IMG/VR virus record: IMGVR_UViG_3300022930_000001
Location: 32,001-96,000 of that record
DNA length: 64,000 nt
Origin: a virus
Strand: one strand, 5' to 3'
The translations under genes were made by a program, and so were the position numbers. Under the pieces are notes generated by a model. That model saw nothing but the letters and a program-made list of their open reading frames with translations, was not told the origin of the DNA and made no database searches. Positions 5,466-34,100 of the stretch are shown in pieces (position 1 is the stretch's first letter; the number at the start of each line of letters is the position of its first letter).

Positions 5466-7640
5466 ATGATAACATCAATAGCATATTATTTGCTCATACT
5501 AATTGCCTTAAGAGTATTTTTTAAGCCAGACAGCTCTATACTATGCTGTGGAATTGCAGGAGTTTCTGTTGTAAAAGGTTTAACTCCTGAACAAGAACAA
5601 AAAGTAACCATGAATATGAAATTGCTAGCACTAGCAAATCAAAGTCGTGGTGAAGATGGTTGCGGTGTATATATGAATGGTGAAATATTCAAAGGATATG
5701 AAGATAGTACTAATAAAATACATACTAAAAAAATGGTAGATTTTCTTGGTCAACCAGAATGGATATTACCCAAACTAGATTCTACGTTAGGTACTGCAAT
5801 GTTTATGCATGCACGTAAAACAACTTCTGGTGCATCTGTGCGGGCAAATACCCATCCATTTTATATAAAATCAGTACATAATGAAAAAGATGATATGATT
5901 CTTTGTCATAATGGTACTATTAAAAACATTTGGGATATGTGCCGTGAATATGAAATGAAGAATTCTGATTATAATGTAGATTCTTTTGCTCTTGGTGCAA
6001 TGATTGATAAAGTTGGAGCTAAAAAAGCTTTGACAAAATATGATGGCGCTGCAGCATTACTTTGGGTAAAACCTGCAGAACCTGATATACTGTATGTATT
6101 TCATGGTGCTTCTCGTACTGTAAAAGATGGTGTAATTTATTATGAACGTCCATTATGTTTCCTTAAAACAAAAGAAGGAATTTATTTTTCTTCAATGGAA
6201 GAATCATTGTATGCTATTCGTGATAGTGTTGATCAGCAAGTATTTGATGTTGATGCCAATGAAGTAATACGAGTTCGTAATGGTAAATTTGTACACCCAA
6301 GGATAGCCATTGATCGTGCAGATTCTTGTCTTTATAAAGCACCTGTAAGACCTGCATATAATTGGAATGAAAAACCTACAGAAATTGGATTTAAACCTAC
6401 AAATCAGACTGGTTCAAGTATTATTGCGACTGAGGTTCTAAGTGCTCCTAAAGTATCATTAGTATGGTCAGAAACAATGCCTGTTAAACCAACAGAAGGT
6501 ACTAGAATACTTTTTGCAAAAAATCGCTATTGGTTCAATGGATCATTACTTGTACATGGTGAACAATATTTAAACTGTAAAGGAATTGTAGATGATAAAA
6601 CACATCATGATACTAAAGCGTATTATTTTTGGGCAGGTATTTTATTGAAATCTGAAGCTGATTATAATATTCTATTAAATGTGAGTAAAGATGCTTCTTC
6701 ATGGATAAGAAGTCAATCAGTTAATTTTGCATATACAATCTCTAAATTTGCAGCACATCCAGTCACAAATAGTGAAACAGAATTTATTACAGTTAATAAT
6801 ATAGGTTCTGAACCTTACTGGAGATTTGCATTTTATGAAGATGGTCATCGTTGTAAAAAGAATTTTAGTGCTAAATTTAGCTCTAGAACATATGTGATAA
6901 ACAAACAAGCATTTCTTGAAAAAATAGTAAGTTCTGATAAATTAGATAAAGAATTCTTCATTGAAAATCTTAAAACAGATTCTACAAATAATGATGTATT
7001 ATCGGTGTTTGATTGTTCTTATAAAGAAATAAATGAACTTGTTAGAACAATAACAGTCGTTGAAAAATTAGTAGTAAAGGAATTTTTAGCAGAACAATTA
7101 AAAGCTGATTCTCCTGTAGATCCTGTACCTGCTGAAATAGAGGATGCTTACATGACACTTCTACGAAATGTAATTAAAAATGAAACTTGCATTCGAGTAG
7201 AATTAAATGATTTAACAACAACTTTGGAAACTTATGTAGAAATGATTGAACTTGAATATAAAAATCGAGGAAATTCATACAGTAAGGAAGAAGAAGAATT
7301 TGATAAATTCATTGATGGAAATTTTATCATTGATACTGTAGAGCCAACACTTCCGTCTACAAGTATCGAAGAAGAGGAAGCTTTTACAACTTATACTGAA
7401 GAACAAATAGAACTTGAAATGACAAAAGAAAAACTTGAAATGGTTATTGATCAACTAGCAATGCTAGATGAAACAGCTGAAGAACTAAAAACAATAAATA
7501 ATGATTTGGCTCAAGAATCGGCAAGTGTTTTATATAAATCTTTAGATTCTATAAAACATAATTTGTCAGAAATTCTTGTAAAAAATGATTGTACAAATTT
7601 ATCAAATGAATTAAACCGTAAAGTAAAAACAATTATATAA
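5466..7640 (+). CDS. class II (Ntn) glutamine amidotransferase domain protein with a long C-terminal extension
   Basis: CGIAG at residues 28-32, SRGEDGCG, HARKTT.G, NTHPF, HNGTI, VDS, GAAAL, ERPL, FSS. The C-terminus is acidic and helical. Confidence 0.88.
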   Translation: MITSIAYYLLILIALRVFFKPDSSILCCGIAGVSVVKGLTPEQEQKVTMNMKLLALANQSRGEDGCGVYMNGEIFKGYEDSTNKIHTKKMVDFLGQPEWILPKLDSTLGTAMFMHARKTTSGASVRANTHPFYIKSVHNEKDDMILCHNGTIKNIWDMCREYEMKNSDYNVDSFALGAMIDKVGAKKALTKYDGAAALLWVKPAEPDILYVFHGASRTVKDGVIYYERPLCFLKTKEGIYFSSMEESLYAIRDSVDQQVFDVDANEVIRVRNGKFVHPRIAIDRADSCLYKAPVRPAYNWNEKPTEIGFKPTNQTGSSIIATEVLSAPKVSLVWSETMPVKPTEGTRILFAKNRYWFNGSLLVHGEQYLNCKGIVDDKTHHDTKAYYFWAGILLKSEADYNILLNVSKDASSWIRSQSVNFAYTISKFAAHPVTNSETEFITVNNIGSEPYWRFAFYEDGHRCKKNFSAKFSSRTYVINKQAFLEKIVSSDKLDKEFFIENLKTDSTNNDVLSVFDCSYKEINELVRTITVVEKLVVKEFLAEQLKADSPVDPVPAEIEDAYMTLLRNVIKNETCIRVELNDLTTTLETYVEMIELEYKNRGNSYSKEEEEFDKFIDGNFIIDTVEPTLPSTSIEEEEAFTTYTEEQIELEMTKEKLEMVIDQLAMLDETAEELKTINNDLAQESASVLYKSLDSIKHNLSEILVKNDCTNLSNELNRKVKTII

Positions 7641-10069
7641 TGACACTTTATATAGATAATCCAAATTTAAATCTACCGATTAAAAAAACAGTAGACGGTA
7701 CAAAAGAATACAGAAACAATTGTAAATATATTGGTGAAAAGTATTATCGTATTAATGATCAAGTGTATGAAGTAGAAGGTACTTGGTATCGTAAAGAAAC
7801 AGGTAAAATTGAACTTGATCATGAATTACAAAAGTGGCAATTAAAAAATGGTAATCTTATAAAGGGTGCTGTCGGGATTAATCCCGACGGTACTCCTTTA
7901 ATAGGACATTTTTCAAGAAATCCTATTAAAAATGCAATTTGTCATTTTAGTAATTATGGAAGACTTTCTATCCTTAATGTGGATTTAATTCAAGATAATA
8001 GTTTTGTTGAAAATATGGGTAGTGGTGAGTTTGTGCAAACTATCGGTATGGGTGCAGGAAGTATTGCAAAATTGAATCGCATTCATAATGAAGTTGACCA
8101 TACTCGTAAAGGTTATAATATTGAAGATAACGCTGTAGAATTTGCAGAGAAAAAACAAGTTTATGCAGAATACAATACTAAAATTAGTAAAGATGCAAAG
8201 CTTTTTGGTAAACTATTAGGTGATACTACTTTTGGATGTGAATTAGAAACATCTGAAGGTATGCTTCCTGATTATCTTCAGTATCGTCATGGAACAATTA
8301 TATGTCGTGATGGATCAATACATGGTGGAGCAGAATATGTTACAATTCCTATGAGTGGCCCTAAAGGCATTCAAACATTACATAATTTATGTAATGATCT
8401 TAGTAAGCGTTGTAATATTGATGTTAATTGTGCATTGCATATTCATCTAGGTAATTTACCTCAAGATAGAGCATATTTAGTTTCATTGTATAATTTATTC
8501 TATAAAATACAGGATGAATTGTTTAAGATGTTTCCTTATTATAAAACAGATCCTAGAGGAGTAAAAAAGAAGAATTATTGCCAGAAATCAAAAACTATGG
8601 CGATGGCTCCTCTTAAAGATACTTCTAAAGCAGGATTTAAGGAATATGTTGATGATTACTATTATAAGCTTTTCATGTTTCTTTCTGATGGTATTCCTCC
8701 AGATGCTCATAATAATAGGAATAATAATCAACATCCTGTAAGGAACAAATGGGATCGAGTTAATCGCTTGACAAAATAGGCGCATAGTTTAGTAATAAAC
8801 TAATGAAAATTGGGTGAATTCAAAGGAAATCTTAAGTAAAATTTATTTGGTTATATGGGATTTATTATATATCTTTGCAAAAAGAATCCCACTTATGGCA
8901 ACATATGAATTACAAACAAAAGTTAGAAAAAGTGACAATAGAAAATCTTTTAAAATAGATGATCGAGTTAATGAATTTACAATTATTGATGATCAATTTT
9001 ATAAAACAAATGCTTCCAATCATTTACACTTAAAATGTAAATGTCAATGCGGAAATACTTGTTATGAAAGAGTTGATCATCTACGTGATGGTAAAAGAAA
9101 AAGTTGTCCTAAATGTACACAAGATGTTAATAATAAAAAAATTAGACCTTTTGGAGAAATGACTTCATACTCATTTATTACTTTAAAAAGTCGAGCAGTT
9201 GAACGAAATTTAGAATTTGATTTAGATATGGAATATCTTCATAATCTTTTTATTGAACAAAATCGTAAATGTGCTCTATCTAAAATGGATATAAGTATTA
9301 AAAAATTAGCATCAGGTCGTATTACTGCGTCATTAGATAGAATTGATTCCAAAAAAGGTTATATTAAAGGTAATGTACAATGGCTACATACAAGAGTTAA
9401 TATAATGAAGAGTAATATGGAAGAAATATTATTTATTAACATATGTAATTTAGTTTGTAAAAATAATCAAGAATTAATACAAGATAATTTTGATCCAAGT
9501 CTACTGAATGAATTCTCTTTTAACGAGAAAGTAAGTAGGAAGGAGCAACGACTAGAGATTGAGGATATTCAAACCAATAACATCTCCAAGAGCGCCCGAC
9601 ATCCAGAAATGGATGATGACATAGTCTGAGCTATATAGAAATATATAGAAATTAGGATAAAGAGCCTAATGATAACAAAACTGATTACGCACTTAACATG
9701 TTAAATATGCTATTTTCAGAGCGTAAAACTATAGAGCATCGTTTACATACTCCTACATTAAATTCAACTAAAGTAATAAATTGGTTGTTTATTGTAAATG
9801 CAATATGTAAATATGCTGAGAAAAATATGCAAAAAATACTAACAACTGAAGGAAATATTTCTCTTAAAGAAGTATTTAATTATTATCGTGAAGCAAATCC
9901 TGAAAATGATAGAGCGGGCTTTGTATCAGATTTTTTATGGGCTTATTATGAAAGTCGAGTTAAATCTTTTCAAAAGGATCTTAAAAATGATGATAAAATT
10001 AGTGAATGGGAGATGAAACAAGATAAAAAATACGTATTTATGTATCAAGGAATAAGTTCTTTGGTATAA
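7640..10069 (+). CDS. putative amidoligase (Amidoligase_2-like), split gene: exon 1 7640-8768, exon 2 9684-10069, 504 aa spliced
   Basis: Exon 1 has FGCELET, DGSI, EYVT, CALHIHLG and NYC. Joining 8768 to 9684 restores in-frame ...VNR-Y-YALNMLN...KTIEHRLHTPT, the conserved RY..LN...TIE.R motif. Confidence 0.87.
8846..8877 (+). promoter_or_regulatory. Bacteroidota housekeeping-sigma promoter inside the intron, upstream of the homing endonuclease
   Basis: TTTG (8846-49), 20 nt, TATCTTTG (8870-77), ending 17 nt before ATG 8895. Confidence 0.75.
8895..9629 (+). CDS. intron-encoded HNH (bba-Me) homing endonuclease
   Basis: CKCQCG..SCPKC zinc motifs, then CALS..ASLDRIDSKKGY.KGNVQW....N.MK. Likely start is ATG 8895 after the promoter (track start 8814 is GTG inside P3). 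The stop lies just after the 3' strand of P7. Confidence 0.85.
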   Translation: MATYELQTKVRKSDNRKSFKIDDRVNEFTIIDDQFYKTNASNHLHLKCKCQCGNTCYERVDHLRDGKRKSCPKCTQDVNNKKIRPFGEMTSYSFITLKSRAVERNLEFDLDMEYLHNLFIEQNRKCALSKMDISIKKLASGRITASLDRIDSKKGYIKGNVQWLHTRVNIMKSNMEEILFINICNLVCKNNQELIQDNFDPSLLNEFSFNEKVSRKEQRLEIEDIQTNNISKSARHPEMDDDIV

Positions 10070-10084
10070 AATTAAAATAAATAA

Positions 10085-10158
10085 GAACTGGTAACTTAGA
10101 TGCTTTAAAGAGATTGCCTACAAGCGATTTGACATAGGTTGGACTCCTATCCAGTTCT
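10085..10158 (+). pseudogene. degenerate tRNA-like cloverleaf (possibly derived from tRNA-Val UAC)
   Basis: gaactgg-ta-actt-agatgcttta-aaga-g-attgc-ctacaa-gcgat-ttgac-atagg-ttggact-cctat-ccagttc-t. Arm spacing is canonical, but the anticodon loop is 6 nt, the T-loop is TTGGACT, the D-loop lacks GG and no CCA is encoded. Confidence 0.55.
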
Positions 10159-10166
10159 TATTTATT

Positions 10167-10198
10167 TTTGTTATTATTAACTATTTAGAGTATCTTTG
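10167..10198 (+). promoter_or_regulatory. Bacteroidota-type promoter
   Basis: TTTG (10167-70), 20 nt, TATCTTTG (10191-98). ATG at 10203 implies a leaderless or near-leaderless transcript. Confidence 0.75.
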
Positions 10199-10202
10199 TG
10201 CC

Positions 10203-10640
10203 ATGAATACATGGACTTACAAAGGAGAAATAATAGATAATATAGATAAAGTGCCTGAAGGTGCTATTGGTTTTATATATTGCCTTACGAATATTAATAC
10301 CGGAAAGCAGTATATCGGTAAAAAATATCTTTATAGTGAACGAAAGAAAAATCTTACTAAAAAAGAAATTTCAGAACTTGCTAGTAAAAGATTAAAACAT
10401 TGGAAAACAGTTAAATCAGAAAGTGATTGGCTTACTTATAATTCTTCCTCTGAAGAAATCAAGAAAGAAATAAAAGAAGGTCAATTATTTCAGAAAGAAA
10501 TATTATATTGGACATTTAATAAAATAAGTACAACATATTTAGAAATACGTACCCAGATGGAATTACGAGTTTTAGAATCAAATATGTATTACAACAATAA
10601 TATAAATTCTAGCTGGTTTAGAGATAATATAGGAATATAA
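10203..10640 (+). CDS. free-standing GIY-YIG family endonuclease
   Basis: GFIYCLTN..TGKQYIGKK, W.TY.SS, catalytic-type E (YLE), YYN.NI. Confidence 0.8.
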   Translation: MNTWTYKGEIIDNIDKVPEGAIGFIYCLTNINTGKQYIGKKYLYSERKKNLTKKEISELASKRLKHWKTVKSESDWLTYNSSSEEIKKEIKEGQLFQKEILYWTFNKISTTYLEIRTQMELRVLESNMYYNNNINSSWFRDNIGI

Positions 10641-31173: not shown

Positions 31174-34100
31174 TATCTACCTGCTTTTGAATTAATAACT
31201 ATTCCCATTTCTTGTGCTGCTTCAGGTTCAAATATTGCAATATAATTAAGCATTTCTTTAGTTACAGGAAAAGTTTTCATTATATATTTTACTGGATGTG
31301 TAGAGTCAACTAAATCCTGATCACCAATAGTATATCCAAATATTTCTGTTGCTAAATTTGTAAATATTTTAGTTATATCTGAAAGTACTCCCAGACCCGG
31401 AAATATTCCTCCAGATAATATATGCTGAAGAGACATCGGATTATAATAAAATGACATTTCCTGAGTTATATTATCCATTGTACGTAAATAATAACCATAT
31501 GCTGCCTTAGTTGTTTTATCTTCATCATCTTCTGGTGCAAAATATTTCGCAGCTAAAAACATCGAAATAAGACCTAGAACAAGTAATGTATCCTTTACTT
31601 GTGATCTAAGATTTTGACGAACTAAATCATAAAATTCAGCTTCAGTCATTTCTAACTGTTTATTATTTTTTTCAAAATAATCTTTTTTCTTTTGTTCATA
31701 TAGTTTTTGCAATCCATTAATACCATCTTTAGTAGCATAAACAGTATCATATATTTTCTTTATATTGGGTAATAAATTCCAAGAAAAATATCGAATTGCC
31801 ATACGCATTTTACCCCATTCATAAGAATCAGTTCCTGCTATATAACTTAATGGTTGTGCTCTTTGATAAATAAGATTAGGAACCCAGTTTTTAAACATCA
31901 TAAAAGATCTACCTAGAATAGTAAAACGTATTTGACTTTCATCGTTAGGTGATATATTGCCCGCTGCACGTTTACCTATTTGTTGAACTAATGAACGATA
32001 TTTATGAATTGATTCTTCTGTTGCGTCACCTATTTTAAATTTACCATCTACTACATTCGCTTTTTTAGCTACTCCAAATTGTTCTTTAAGTTCTTTTACT
32101 TTATTATCAAAATCTTTTTCTAATTTTCTGCTATCTGCTTCAGATAGATTATATCTATTTTGATATTCTTTAGTAGAAGCATAGTACGCTCTTGCATTTA
32201 CTAGTTTTTTATCTATAACTATTGCATTATCCATCATAGCTAAGAAGTTAGCATATTGAACAACACTATCTGCATTACGCATTATAGACATTATCAGATC
32301 TGAAGCCGAATGTTTAGTAAGATTAGAAAGTGACATATTATTCATCATCCTTTGTAATGATTCATCTCCAAGAGGTAAAAATGTTTTCATCATTGCAAGA
32401 TGTACATTTTCCTTATCTCCTATAAATTTATGAGTTGCAAATTTCCATTCTGCAGCAAAAAACTCTGATTTATTATAATATTTACCTTCTGTGACAAATG
32501 CTTGAAAATTACCACCCATAAACTGTGCAATAGAAGAAGCTACATTTAAACCAAGTGTTTTCATAGTAAACATTCTATTACCTGCATCGATTACTTTTAC
32601 TAAAGATAAATTTCGAGTTTTAATTTCATCTGATACTTTGGGTAAAGTTGTACCAAATCTATTATTCATAGTTTCAGCAATACTATTCCATTTATTGGCA
32701 ATACCCTCTCCAACTTTTCCTAATAATACATCTGATGATTCTGAAGTAATATATTTTTGACCATAAAGATTATTTTTTATATAATTCTTTAAGAATTTAG
32801 AATTTACTTCATTAGATTCATTTGGAAATTGCAAAGCATCTTTAATAAGATTACCATATTGATTTATTTGTAAAGATTGTTTATTTTTTTCTACAAAATA
32901 AAGTGCATTTGCAAGTCCTTCTACATTTTTCTTATTTTCATATTCTACTACTTGTTTAGTATAAATTGCAAGATTTTTAAATATATCGTCTGATACATTA
33001 GAATAATCTTGATAAGAATTACCATCTTTATCTATTTTTGCTTGAGATATATCTGAAGTAAAATATTTAGGAATAGTATCTTCTATTTCACCTGTTAATG
33101 GATTAAAATTACCATATCCAACAGATTCATCATCTATTGATAAACTCGAAATTAAACTTTCTATAGGATTAAAACTTCCACCAAACACAAATTTTTCAGC
33201 AATAATTTTTCTAATAAAAGGTAAAAAGTTTTTATACTTTTGTGCTGTTAAATATTCTGATTCTTTTGCTTTAGTATTTATTTCTAATGCATAATTATAT
33301 AAAGCAAGAACTGATTCATTTTTTTGAAGTTCTTGATATTCTTTACTTAACCATTTATCCGTAGGAAATTGACGAAGACCTATTAAGTTAGTATAAGGAA
33401 CATTTGAATTAAGATTTGTGATATATTCTAAATCAAGTTTCGCTTTTGTTTTAGCGTTAGCTTGTTCTTCCTTATCTCCTAAATATGTAGATTCATCAAT
33501 TTGTTTAATTTTATTTGCTTTATAATCGTTAATCCATTTTTCAAATTTTACAACATCAATATTTGCCTTAATCCACTTATAATCTTTAGCTTCAATTTTA
33601 TTTTTTAATTCTTTATAAAATTCAGAACTATATTTATCTATAAGTTGATTGACACCTTTACCACTTACTTGTTTTTCAATAAGTTTTTTATAATCAGAAA
33701 TTTTTAATCTTTTAGATTTATAAGATTCTTTTAAATCTTTTTCTATTTGAATTAAACGTTCAACATAATCTTGTGTTTGTAATTCTGTTTTATTTCGGAA
33801 TTCTTCTGCGATTAACCAATATGTTTGTACTGCTTTAGTAGGTGCTGAAGATAATGTTCTAAAATTTCTATCTACAGTATTTACAGATTTTTCTGCTTCT
33901 AATAAATCTCTAATATTTCTTTTTTCAGATATATATTTAGAAGTAAATTTATTAAATATTAATTTAACATTTTTACTGGCACTTCTTGCTTCGGCAGCCA
34001 ATTGTTTGATATCTTTAAGATCATCTTTATGTTTGTCTAAATTTTCTTTAAAAAAATCTTCAAAATAAAGATCAATATCTTTGTATATTTCTAAAGCTTC

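Follow-up and report, generated by a model that had tools for sequence, protein, structure and literature searches.

The amidoligase gene of a virus in IMG/VR (record IMGVR_UViG_3300022930_000001) appears as two fragments with a reading frame for a hypothetical protein between them. It is part of a stretch of 64,000 nucleotides (nt; positions 32,001 to 96,000 of that record) that is here called the window and whose first letter is position 1. It is very likely that positions 8769-9683 of the window are a mobile group I intron of the IA2-like kind found in phages, which lies in the Tyr377 codon of an Amidoligase_2 gene and carries an HNH-like homing endonuclease. The annotation is corrected by this reading, as the two "fragments" and the "hypothetical protein" would become one ligase of 504 amino acids (aa) and a mobile intron. 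The intron is a fairly ordinary example of a known selfish element, and it is the host gene that is unusual.

The exon joint in the amidoligase gene

In terms of open reading frames (ORFs), the ligase is encoded in two pieces, an amidoligase ORF of 379 aa (7640..8779) and a second ORF of 123 aa that starts at 9698, which are in different frames and separated by 915 nt. Exon 1 is recognised by the Pfam model PF12224 (Amidoligase_2) with 24.4 bits, above the cut-off of 22, and by PHROG 2443 ("amidoligase enzyme") with an E-value of 4.5e-20 over profile positions 188-297, and positions 327-365 of the same profile are matched by the frame of exon 2, in colinear order after exon 1. U8768 is in codon phase 1 of exon 1, the frame of exon 2 is open from 9671, and A9684 takes codon position 2. 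Joining U8768 to A9684 by script gives a 504-aa Amidoligase_2 product that reads R-Y-Y-A-L-N over the joint. Exactly this in-frame join at U8768/G9683 had been proposed in an earlier reading of the letters alone, here called the original prediction, and the homologues bear it out.

There are 136 amidoligase homologues at E <= 0.001, and the homologue counts given here rest on 120 that were listed, 100 of which (490-530 aa) form the full-length set; PF12224 is present in most full-length homologues. The joint is contiguous in all 16 uninterrupted homologues of a first alignment, and the joined 504-aa product is colinear with 100 of the 100 full-length homologues over R376-Y377. The residues R376, Y377, N381, T392, E394 and R396 are each present in 100 of 100, and residues 375-387 are free of insertions and deletions in these homologues, 15 of which have such changes 3-9 residues upstream. 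Among non-overlapping blocks, the 11-residue block from 376 is the eighth most conserved and the block 387-397 the seventh. It follows from the joint and the alignment that the intron lies inside the invariant Tyr377 codon, right after the invariant Arg376, and the claim that a highly conserved motif is interrupted was thus correct. It is the conservation of the insertion site that is attested by the alignment, and a role of this motif in the catalytic site is putative; a PDB search with the ligase profile gave no useful solved relative (BcsQ only, at E 0.04).

The only other in-frame G that could serve as 3' splice site is G9671. It is in frame with U8768, and a real intron spliced there would yield a 508-aa protein with four extra residues. 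Such a four-residue insertion is found in 0 of the 16 and 0 of the 100 homologues, and the relatives of the intron end at the equivalent of G9683, after a shared 3' tail, so that this alternative can practically be neglected.

Alleles and related introns in amidoligase genes

The original prediction had proposed to look for intron-less alleles, and they are in fact the majority. Among 27 IMG/VR loci, 23 have a contiguous amidoligase gene, three are interrupted (L003, L006 and L024), and one is cut at the contig end. L003 is a phage contig whose amidoligase is 48% identical to that of the window and has a 239-nt insertion without ORF in the same codon. A metagenome scan yielded one complete two-intron allele, L120, and otherwise re-found the same contigs. 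L120 is a metagenome contig that is identical to L006 in the overlap, and of the two introns in its amidoligase gene, the first is at the site of the window (site 1) and bears an endonuclease gene, and the second (L120:3964-4255) has 292 nt and no ORF and follows at 61 nt downstream, directly behind the invariant R of T-x-E-F-R (site 2). The second-site intron is found also in L006, from about 6135, and in L057:1-187. Like the intron of the window, the L003 intron and L120 intron 2 belong to the same ribozyme lineage and reside in the same host gene, in the case of L003 even in the same codon, but they have no endonuclease gene.

A related intron with endonuclease gene interrupts an amidoligase of 32% identity in L083. 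In L083 (12853-13759) and in L024 (4176-5063), splicing would take place after CGU in phase 0, which is one base upstream of the position in the window, and in the window, L003 and L006/L120 it would take place after the U of the Tyr codon in phase 1, the Arg codon ending with C or G. The U at position -1 thus comes from whichever codon has one. In L083 and L024, both borders have a repeated T, which leaves the splice position ambiguous by one base at the DNA level. Traces of both sites are also seen in the proteins: of the 120 homologues in the list, 12 break off at site 1, exactly at the invariant Arg in ten cases, and three (P0022, P0037 and P0047) stop just past E-F-R, which is site 2. Together, these alleles with and without intron, and with and without ORF, at two sites form a natural set that is well suited to homing studies.

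As a side observation, a 13-letter string of the 3' tail recurs in L083 near 9373-9385, about 3.5 kb upstream of the amidoligase, where this phage may have another intron.

The ribozyme core

The covariance model RF00028 matches the window with permissive filters at 9415-9648 with 43.2 bits (E 2e-9). The alignment fits P6, P7, an insertion between P7 and P3', P8, P7' and P9 well, and P1-P5 are forced onto coding sequence. The ORF-less relatives give higher scores on the same model, 79.4 bits for the L003 intron at the same site and 98.7 bits for L120 intron 2 at the second site. When the core of the window, consisting of the 5' 70 nt (8769-8838) and the 3' 208 nt (9476-9683), is joined by script, it is identical to L120 intron 2 in 211 of 275 positions (77%) and to the 239-nt intron of L003 in 164 of 234 (70%). 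A string of 28 nt from P7' to P9 occurs once in the window and was found in none of 100 shuffles. With the match, the ORF-less relatives and the covarying helices, the prediction of a group I intron at this place is well supported.

The placement of the helices in the window was guided by how the ORF-less relatives align to RF00028 (Table 1). P1 with its U.G pair, P2, P3, P7, P8 and P9, which had been described as readable, could all be located, and P4-P6, which had not been mentioned, are present as well. When L003 and L120 intron 2 are aligned to RF00028, the 5' strands of P3, P4 and P5 in the window (8810..8833) are colinear with these alignments. A comparison of six related introns (window, L083, L024, L120 intron 1, L003 and L120 intron 2) shows that the pairing of P1, P2, P3, P4, P7.1, P8 and P9.1 is kept by compensatory changes. 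Across the five site-1 introns, the internal guide of P1 (8777-8782) covaries with the exon end and follows the codons of each host. P2 is fully compensated in L083, L024 and L120 intron 2, with the GUAA loop kept in each of them. P3 is found as UUGGGU/GCCCGA, AGGGGU/GCCCCU and UUGCGU/GCGCAA, and P4 as UCAAAG/UUUUGA, UGCUGG/UCAGCA and UCAGAG/UUCUGA.

Table 1. Features of the amidoligase gene and its putative intron in the window
Feature	Position	Strand	Description	Evidence
Exon 1, amidoligase gene	7640..8768	+	376 codons and base 1 of the Tyr377 codon	ORF list, Pfam, PHROG
Group I intron, IA2-like (predicted)	8769..9683	+	915 nt, ends with G9683	RF00028 match, ORF-less relatives
P1	8765-8770/8777-8782	+	Six of six pairs; wobble U8768.G8779 at the 5' splice site	
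P2 hairpin	8785-8791/8796-8802	+	7 bp, GUAA loop	
P3	8810-8815/9594-9599	+		Compensatory changes in relatives
P4	8820-8825/9488-9493	+		Compensatory changes in relatives
P5	8830-8833/9482-9485	+		Compensatory changes in relatives
TAnnTTTG motif TATCTTTG	8870..8877	+	17 nt ahead of the endonuclease ATG	
Homing endonuclease gene (putative)	8895..9629	+	244 aa, in loop L5	PHROG, family and fold evidence
3' half of the catalytic core	9481..9629	+	P5', P4', P6/P6a/P6b, P7, P7.1, P3', P8, P7'	RF00028 alignment, helix table
P6/P6a	9494-9544	+		RF00028 alignment, helix table
P7	9550-9554/9622-9626	+		RF00028 alignment, helix table
P8	9600-9615	+		RF00028 alignment, helix table
3' tail to omega-G 9683	9631..9683	+	P9 onward	Shared by relatives
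P9	9631-9648	+		RF00028 alignment
P9.1	9652-9669	+		Covariation
Exon 2, amidoligase gene	9684..10069	+	Last two bases of the Tyr377 codon, 127 more codons, stop	PHROG 2443, homologue alignment

Group I introns of the subgroup IA2 are marked by one or more extra elements, P7.1/P7.2, between P7 and P3'. The window has an insertion of 39 nt relative to RF00028 in just this region, in which a single stem is resolved, a covarying P7.1-type stem of 5 bp (9555-9559/9582-9586). In minimum free energy (MFE) folds of ORF-deleted cores, most helices are recovered, namely P1-P6, P8, P9 and P9.1 in the case of L083 and P2, P4, P5, P8, P9 and P9.1 in the case of the window. P7 is not visible in these folds, because P7 and P3 form a pseudoknot.

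The endonuclease gene in loop L5

The ORF inside the intron lies between both strands of P5, where the ORF-less L120 intron 2 has a short hairpin. Its start is best placed at ATG 8895, in agreement with the database gene call and with the N-terminus of the 53%-identical homologue P0123. The protein matches PHROG 3322 ("endonuclease", E 2.1e-24), 1035 ("endonuclease VII", 5.3e-16) and 3118 ("HNH endonuclease", 1.9e-13), and with the family and fold evidence this agrees with the intron-encoded endonuclease of the original prediction. The protein has 228 homologues, none of which has a Pfam domain over the matching part, and a large endonuclease family for which there is no curated model is thereby flagged. 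Relatives occur in 97 phage records, including Chryseobacterium and Bacteroides crAss phages, homologues are present in cr1_1, cr50_1, cr56_1 and Bacteroides PhiCrAssBcn phages, and in coliphages and Salmonella phage Vi06 some relatives adjoin or interrupt genes for DNA polymerase. The residues C52, C71, Q122, C126, L147, D148, R149, I150, G155, Y156, N160, W163, N169 and K172 are invariant in 46 aligned members, and H165 is conserved in at least 90% of the aligned family.

In an AlphaFold model (predicted local distance difference test, pLDDT, 85.6), a beta-barrel at the N-terminus is accompanied by a Cys finger and a beta-beta-alpha unit, the latter with strands 145-149 and 161-165 followed by a helix 166-170. 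In VIA-align, the model is most similar to PacI (Z 7.0, rmsd 7.1, 110 aligned) and to the Gme HNH protein (Z 6.0, rmsd 4.0, 79 aligned), which are middling scores, and further HNH domains (Cas9, McrA, Cap5 and GVE2) follow at Z 3.9-4.9. The best Foldseek matches are HNH proteins as well, yet at E >= 0.055.

Most family members finish near residue 190 of the window protein. The last about 55 codons (9476-9629) are a translation of P5', P4', P6, P7, P7.1, P3', P8 and P7', and AlphaFold is poor over these final residues (pLDDT about 52). The endonuclease ORFs of relatives also enter the ribozyme core but terminate sooner. Ribosomes on 9476-9629 would block the folding of the core.

The TAnnTTTG motif ahead of the endonuclease gene may be a -7 promoter element of the Bacteroidota type. 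The same motif precedes the endonuclease start in L083 and L024, as judged by eye. In the window, TAnnTTTG ends 0-50 nt upstream of 7 of the 46 long-ORF starts (at distances of 4-24 nt), and about 4% would be expected from its density. A scan for sigma-70 promoters and terminators over 8700-10250 gave fewer promoter-like sites than shuffled sequences and no terminator.

Points against the intron and alternative explanations

Several points weigh against a mobile and spliced intron at this place. Splicing is a prediction from the DNA, and the activity of the endonuclease is an assumption. The helix table has 344 of 349 cells paired, and 37 of its 53 helix positions have one double change or more, but its strands were chosen by hand and by eye, so that the paired percentage is illustrative and no unbiased statistic, and for the variable hairpins P2, P6a, P7.1 and P9.1 the positional homology is approximate; convincing are those helices that have conserved flanks as anchors, namely P1, P3 and P4. 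P10, as read by eye, is weak, with at most 3 bp and an offset of one base. At the gathering score of 50 bits, RF00028 has no match in the window or in the whole genome. In exon 2 there is an in-frame ATG at 9698, and ORF logic alone would permit a protein in two pieces. As to the endonuclease, no HNH model of Pfam matches it at E <= 0.1, and there is no match to NCBIfam or to PDB sequences. Also the canonical catalytic His is missing, as all 46 aligned members have D148-R149.

The lack of a covariance-model hit was named by the original prediction as something that would speak against an intron, and at the gathering score this is formally the case, but the blank is uninformative, as a search of L003, L006 and L024 at the gathering threshold also found nothing and thus overlooked the L003 intron that has 79.4 bits in permissive mode; in this permissive mode the match of the window was obtained. 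The score of the window is below the gathering score because the endonuclease gene parts P1-P5 from P5'-P9. The endonuclease-bearing site-1 intron of L120 reaches just 38.9 bits on RF00028, which makes the low score a property of introns that are split by an ORF. The case shows why searches at model thresholds overlook phage introns that bear ORFs.

HNH proteins are defined by a catalytic His that closes strand 1, in a D-H dyad, and in the family described here this dyad is replaced by D-R. The designation as HNH thus holds only loosely, as the PHROG profiles and the predicted fold agree with it, but the Pfam models and the invariant D-R do not. The endonuclease can be called HNH-like, its profiles and predicted fold pointing to the superfamily of HNH or beta-beta-alpha-metal nucleases.

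It could be argued that the intron has decayed, with a dead ribozyme or endonuclease, and that the amidoligase is a pseudogene in this phage. The score below gathering and the weak P10 would be in line with this, as would be the D-R of the endonuclease instead of D-H and the extension of its ORF into the core over about 150 nt. However, every core helix pairs, 85 other copies of the P7'-P9 string agree with it in every letter, and both exons are intact and keep all checked invariant residues. Moreover, D-R is found in 46 of 46 family members and hence is no lesion of this copy, and the low score recurs in the ORF-bearing intron of L120. A decayed intron is therefore very improbable.

The other alternative is a free-standing homing endonuclease gene that splits the amidoligase gene, with polypeptides of 379 aa and 123 aa (from ATG 9698) that associate without any splicing. 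Phage genes that are split by endonuclease genes are known, as in the case of nrdA/mobE of Aeromonas phage Aeh1, and exon 1 has its own stop at 8777-8779, exon 2 its in-frame ATG, and a free-standing SegE-like GIY-YIG gene is found just downstream (10203-10640). This alternative is nevertheless very improbable, as a complete ribozyme core surrounds the endonuclease gene, the exon end is paired with a guide that changes along with it in relatives, and a start at 9698 would drop the invariant Y377 and N381. The ORF-less introns of 239 and 292 nt reside in the same gene, where the insertion of an endonuclease gene cannot explain the split.

Proposed splicing and homing

For the intron, the following course of events can be envisaged. 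On the primary transcript, P1 with the wobble pair U8768.G8779 would form between the terminal part of exon 1 and the internal guide, and P3-P9 would fold into the core, uniting strands that are about 650 nt apart and flank the endonuclease gene. An external guanosine would attack after U8768, the freed end of exon 1 would then attack after G9683, and the product would be an mRNA for the 504-aa ligase. A promoter-like element of its own would probably drive the endonuclease gene in L5. In analogy to other endonucleases encoded in introns, it can be proposed that the enzyme cleaves or nicks, near R-Y-Y, those alleles of co-infecting relatives that lack the intron, and that the repair copies the intron in.

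It has been suggested in the original prediction that the intron indicates an important ligase. This may be inferred from the persistence of such an element, and the conservation among more than 100 homologues independently points to an importance of the ligase. The list of group I intron host genes in phages, with its genes for DNA metabolism, packaging and structure, would be extended to an accessory amide-ligase cluster, which speaks for a conserved ligase that co-infecting relatives have in common.

Three further features are of modest interest, namely that a second site is occupied, that the endonuclease family is uncurated and has D-R in place of D-H, and that the ORF reads through into the core. 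These could be combined to a far-reaching joint reading, which is rather doubtful: the endonuclease would be the founding example of an uncurated HNH-like family (with SH3/Tudor-like barrel and Cys finger) that has Arg for the general-base His and hence a variant mechanism, the passage of the ORF through P5'-P7' (about 150 nt) would be a deliberate switch between homing and host expression, with translation and core folding being mutually exclusive, and the presence of one ribozyme lineage on two invariant motifs 61 nt apart would reflect repeated retargeting in a phage population that shares the ligase cluster.

The wider intron family and known systems

The 28-nt P7'-P9 string of the window is found letter-identical in 85 IMG/VR stretches. 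Host genes were examined with 20 other 3' exons out of 58 distinct ones, and eight of these 20 have a Pfam name above cut-off, all of them of classical intron hosts: tape measure (PhageMin_Tail), terminase large subunit (two exons), NrdD, DNA polymerase III alpha, family A DNA polymerase, tail tube protein, and ribonucleotide reductase small subunit. A ninth exon matches AI-2E_transport with 28.4 bits, under the cut-off of 34.3, and eleven have no match. Amidoligase exons flank three of the 85 stretches, namely L107 (the same contig as L003), L083 and L057. As the named hosts are all of classical kinds, the amidoligase is an unusual host within the family as well, in agreement with what had been predicted. 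In seven loci (L030, L040, L047, L049, L066, L072 and L093) there are two copies each of the 28-nt string, 376-950 nt apart, which suggests several introns of the same family in one gene; in the tested relative L037, the gene is a tape-measure gene.

Group I introns of phages favour genes of nucleotide synthesis and DNA metabolism, according to a 2025 paper in Nucleic Acids Research (PMC12350094). A full-text literature search for "group I intron" together with "amidoligase" found no paper that connects the two.

Phage introns of the subgroup IA2 with HNH-type genes are known from the Bacillus phages SPO1 (I-HmuI) and Bastille (I-BasI), from Twort- and K-like phages of Staphylococcus, and from the DNA-polymerase introns of the T7-like phages PhiI and W31. 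On such introns there are studies by Goodrich-Blair and Shub from 1994 and by Landthaler and Shub from 2003. The window intron resembles these introns in ribozyme class, in the endonuclease gene that is looped out of the core, and in the insertion in an invariant motif. At the nucleotide level, 9614-9689 of the window is about 81% similar to introns of Staphylococcus phages, one of which is annotated as Intron_gpI, and 9528-9689 is similar to introns in tape-measure genes of Clostridium phages. Unlike the known IA2 introns, the intron of the window resides in an amidoligase gene rather than in a gene for DNA metabolism, packaging, lysis or structure, its endonuclease belongs to a family without Pfam model that has D-R for D-H, and its ORF is in L5 and continues through P5'-P7'.

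The td intron of phage T4 with I-TevI is likewise a mobile phage group I intron that has its endonuclease gene in a peripheral loop, with its own expression signals, and also there translation and ribozyme folding can interfere. It differs in that I-TevI belongs to the GIY-YIG family, in that the gene is in the P6 loop, and in that the host gene serves the synthesis of DNA precursors.

Group I introns have been described also in crAss-like phages, which are probably phages of the same kind as the one considered here, and the main text of that study does not contain the word "amidoligase", though its supplements could list such introns (Yutin et al. 2021, PMC7886860). The genome with the window probably comes from a leaf-litter sample rather than from gut.

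Genome context

The genome record has 118,695 bp and terminal repeats, and giant ORFs in the window encode 1369-3962 aa. One of them has matches, limited to about 50 residues, in 20 phage records, all of which belong to crAss-like phages or IAS virus, and these matches agree loosely with the label "crAss-like" that had been given in the first reading. Over 9900-10400, ARAGORN found no tRNA or tmRNA.

The ligase gene is preceded by a gene for an Ntn-type GATase (5466-7640) that overlaps its start with ATGA at 7637-7640, and the two genes are probably translationally coupled. On the other side, 134 nt past the amidoligase stop, the gene at 10203-10640 encodes a SegE-type GIY-YIG endonuclease (PF19835, E 6.2e-26) and is a second mobile nuclease gene at the amidoligase locus.

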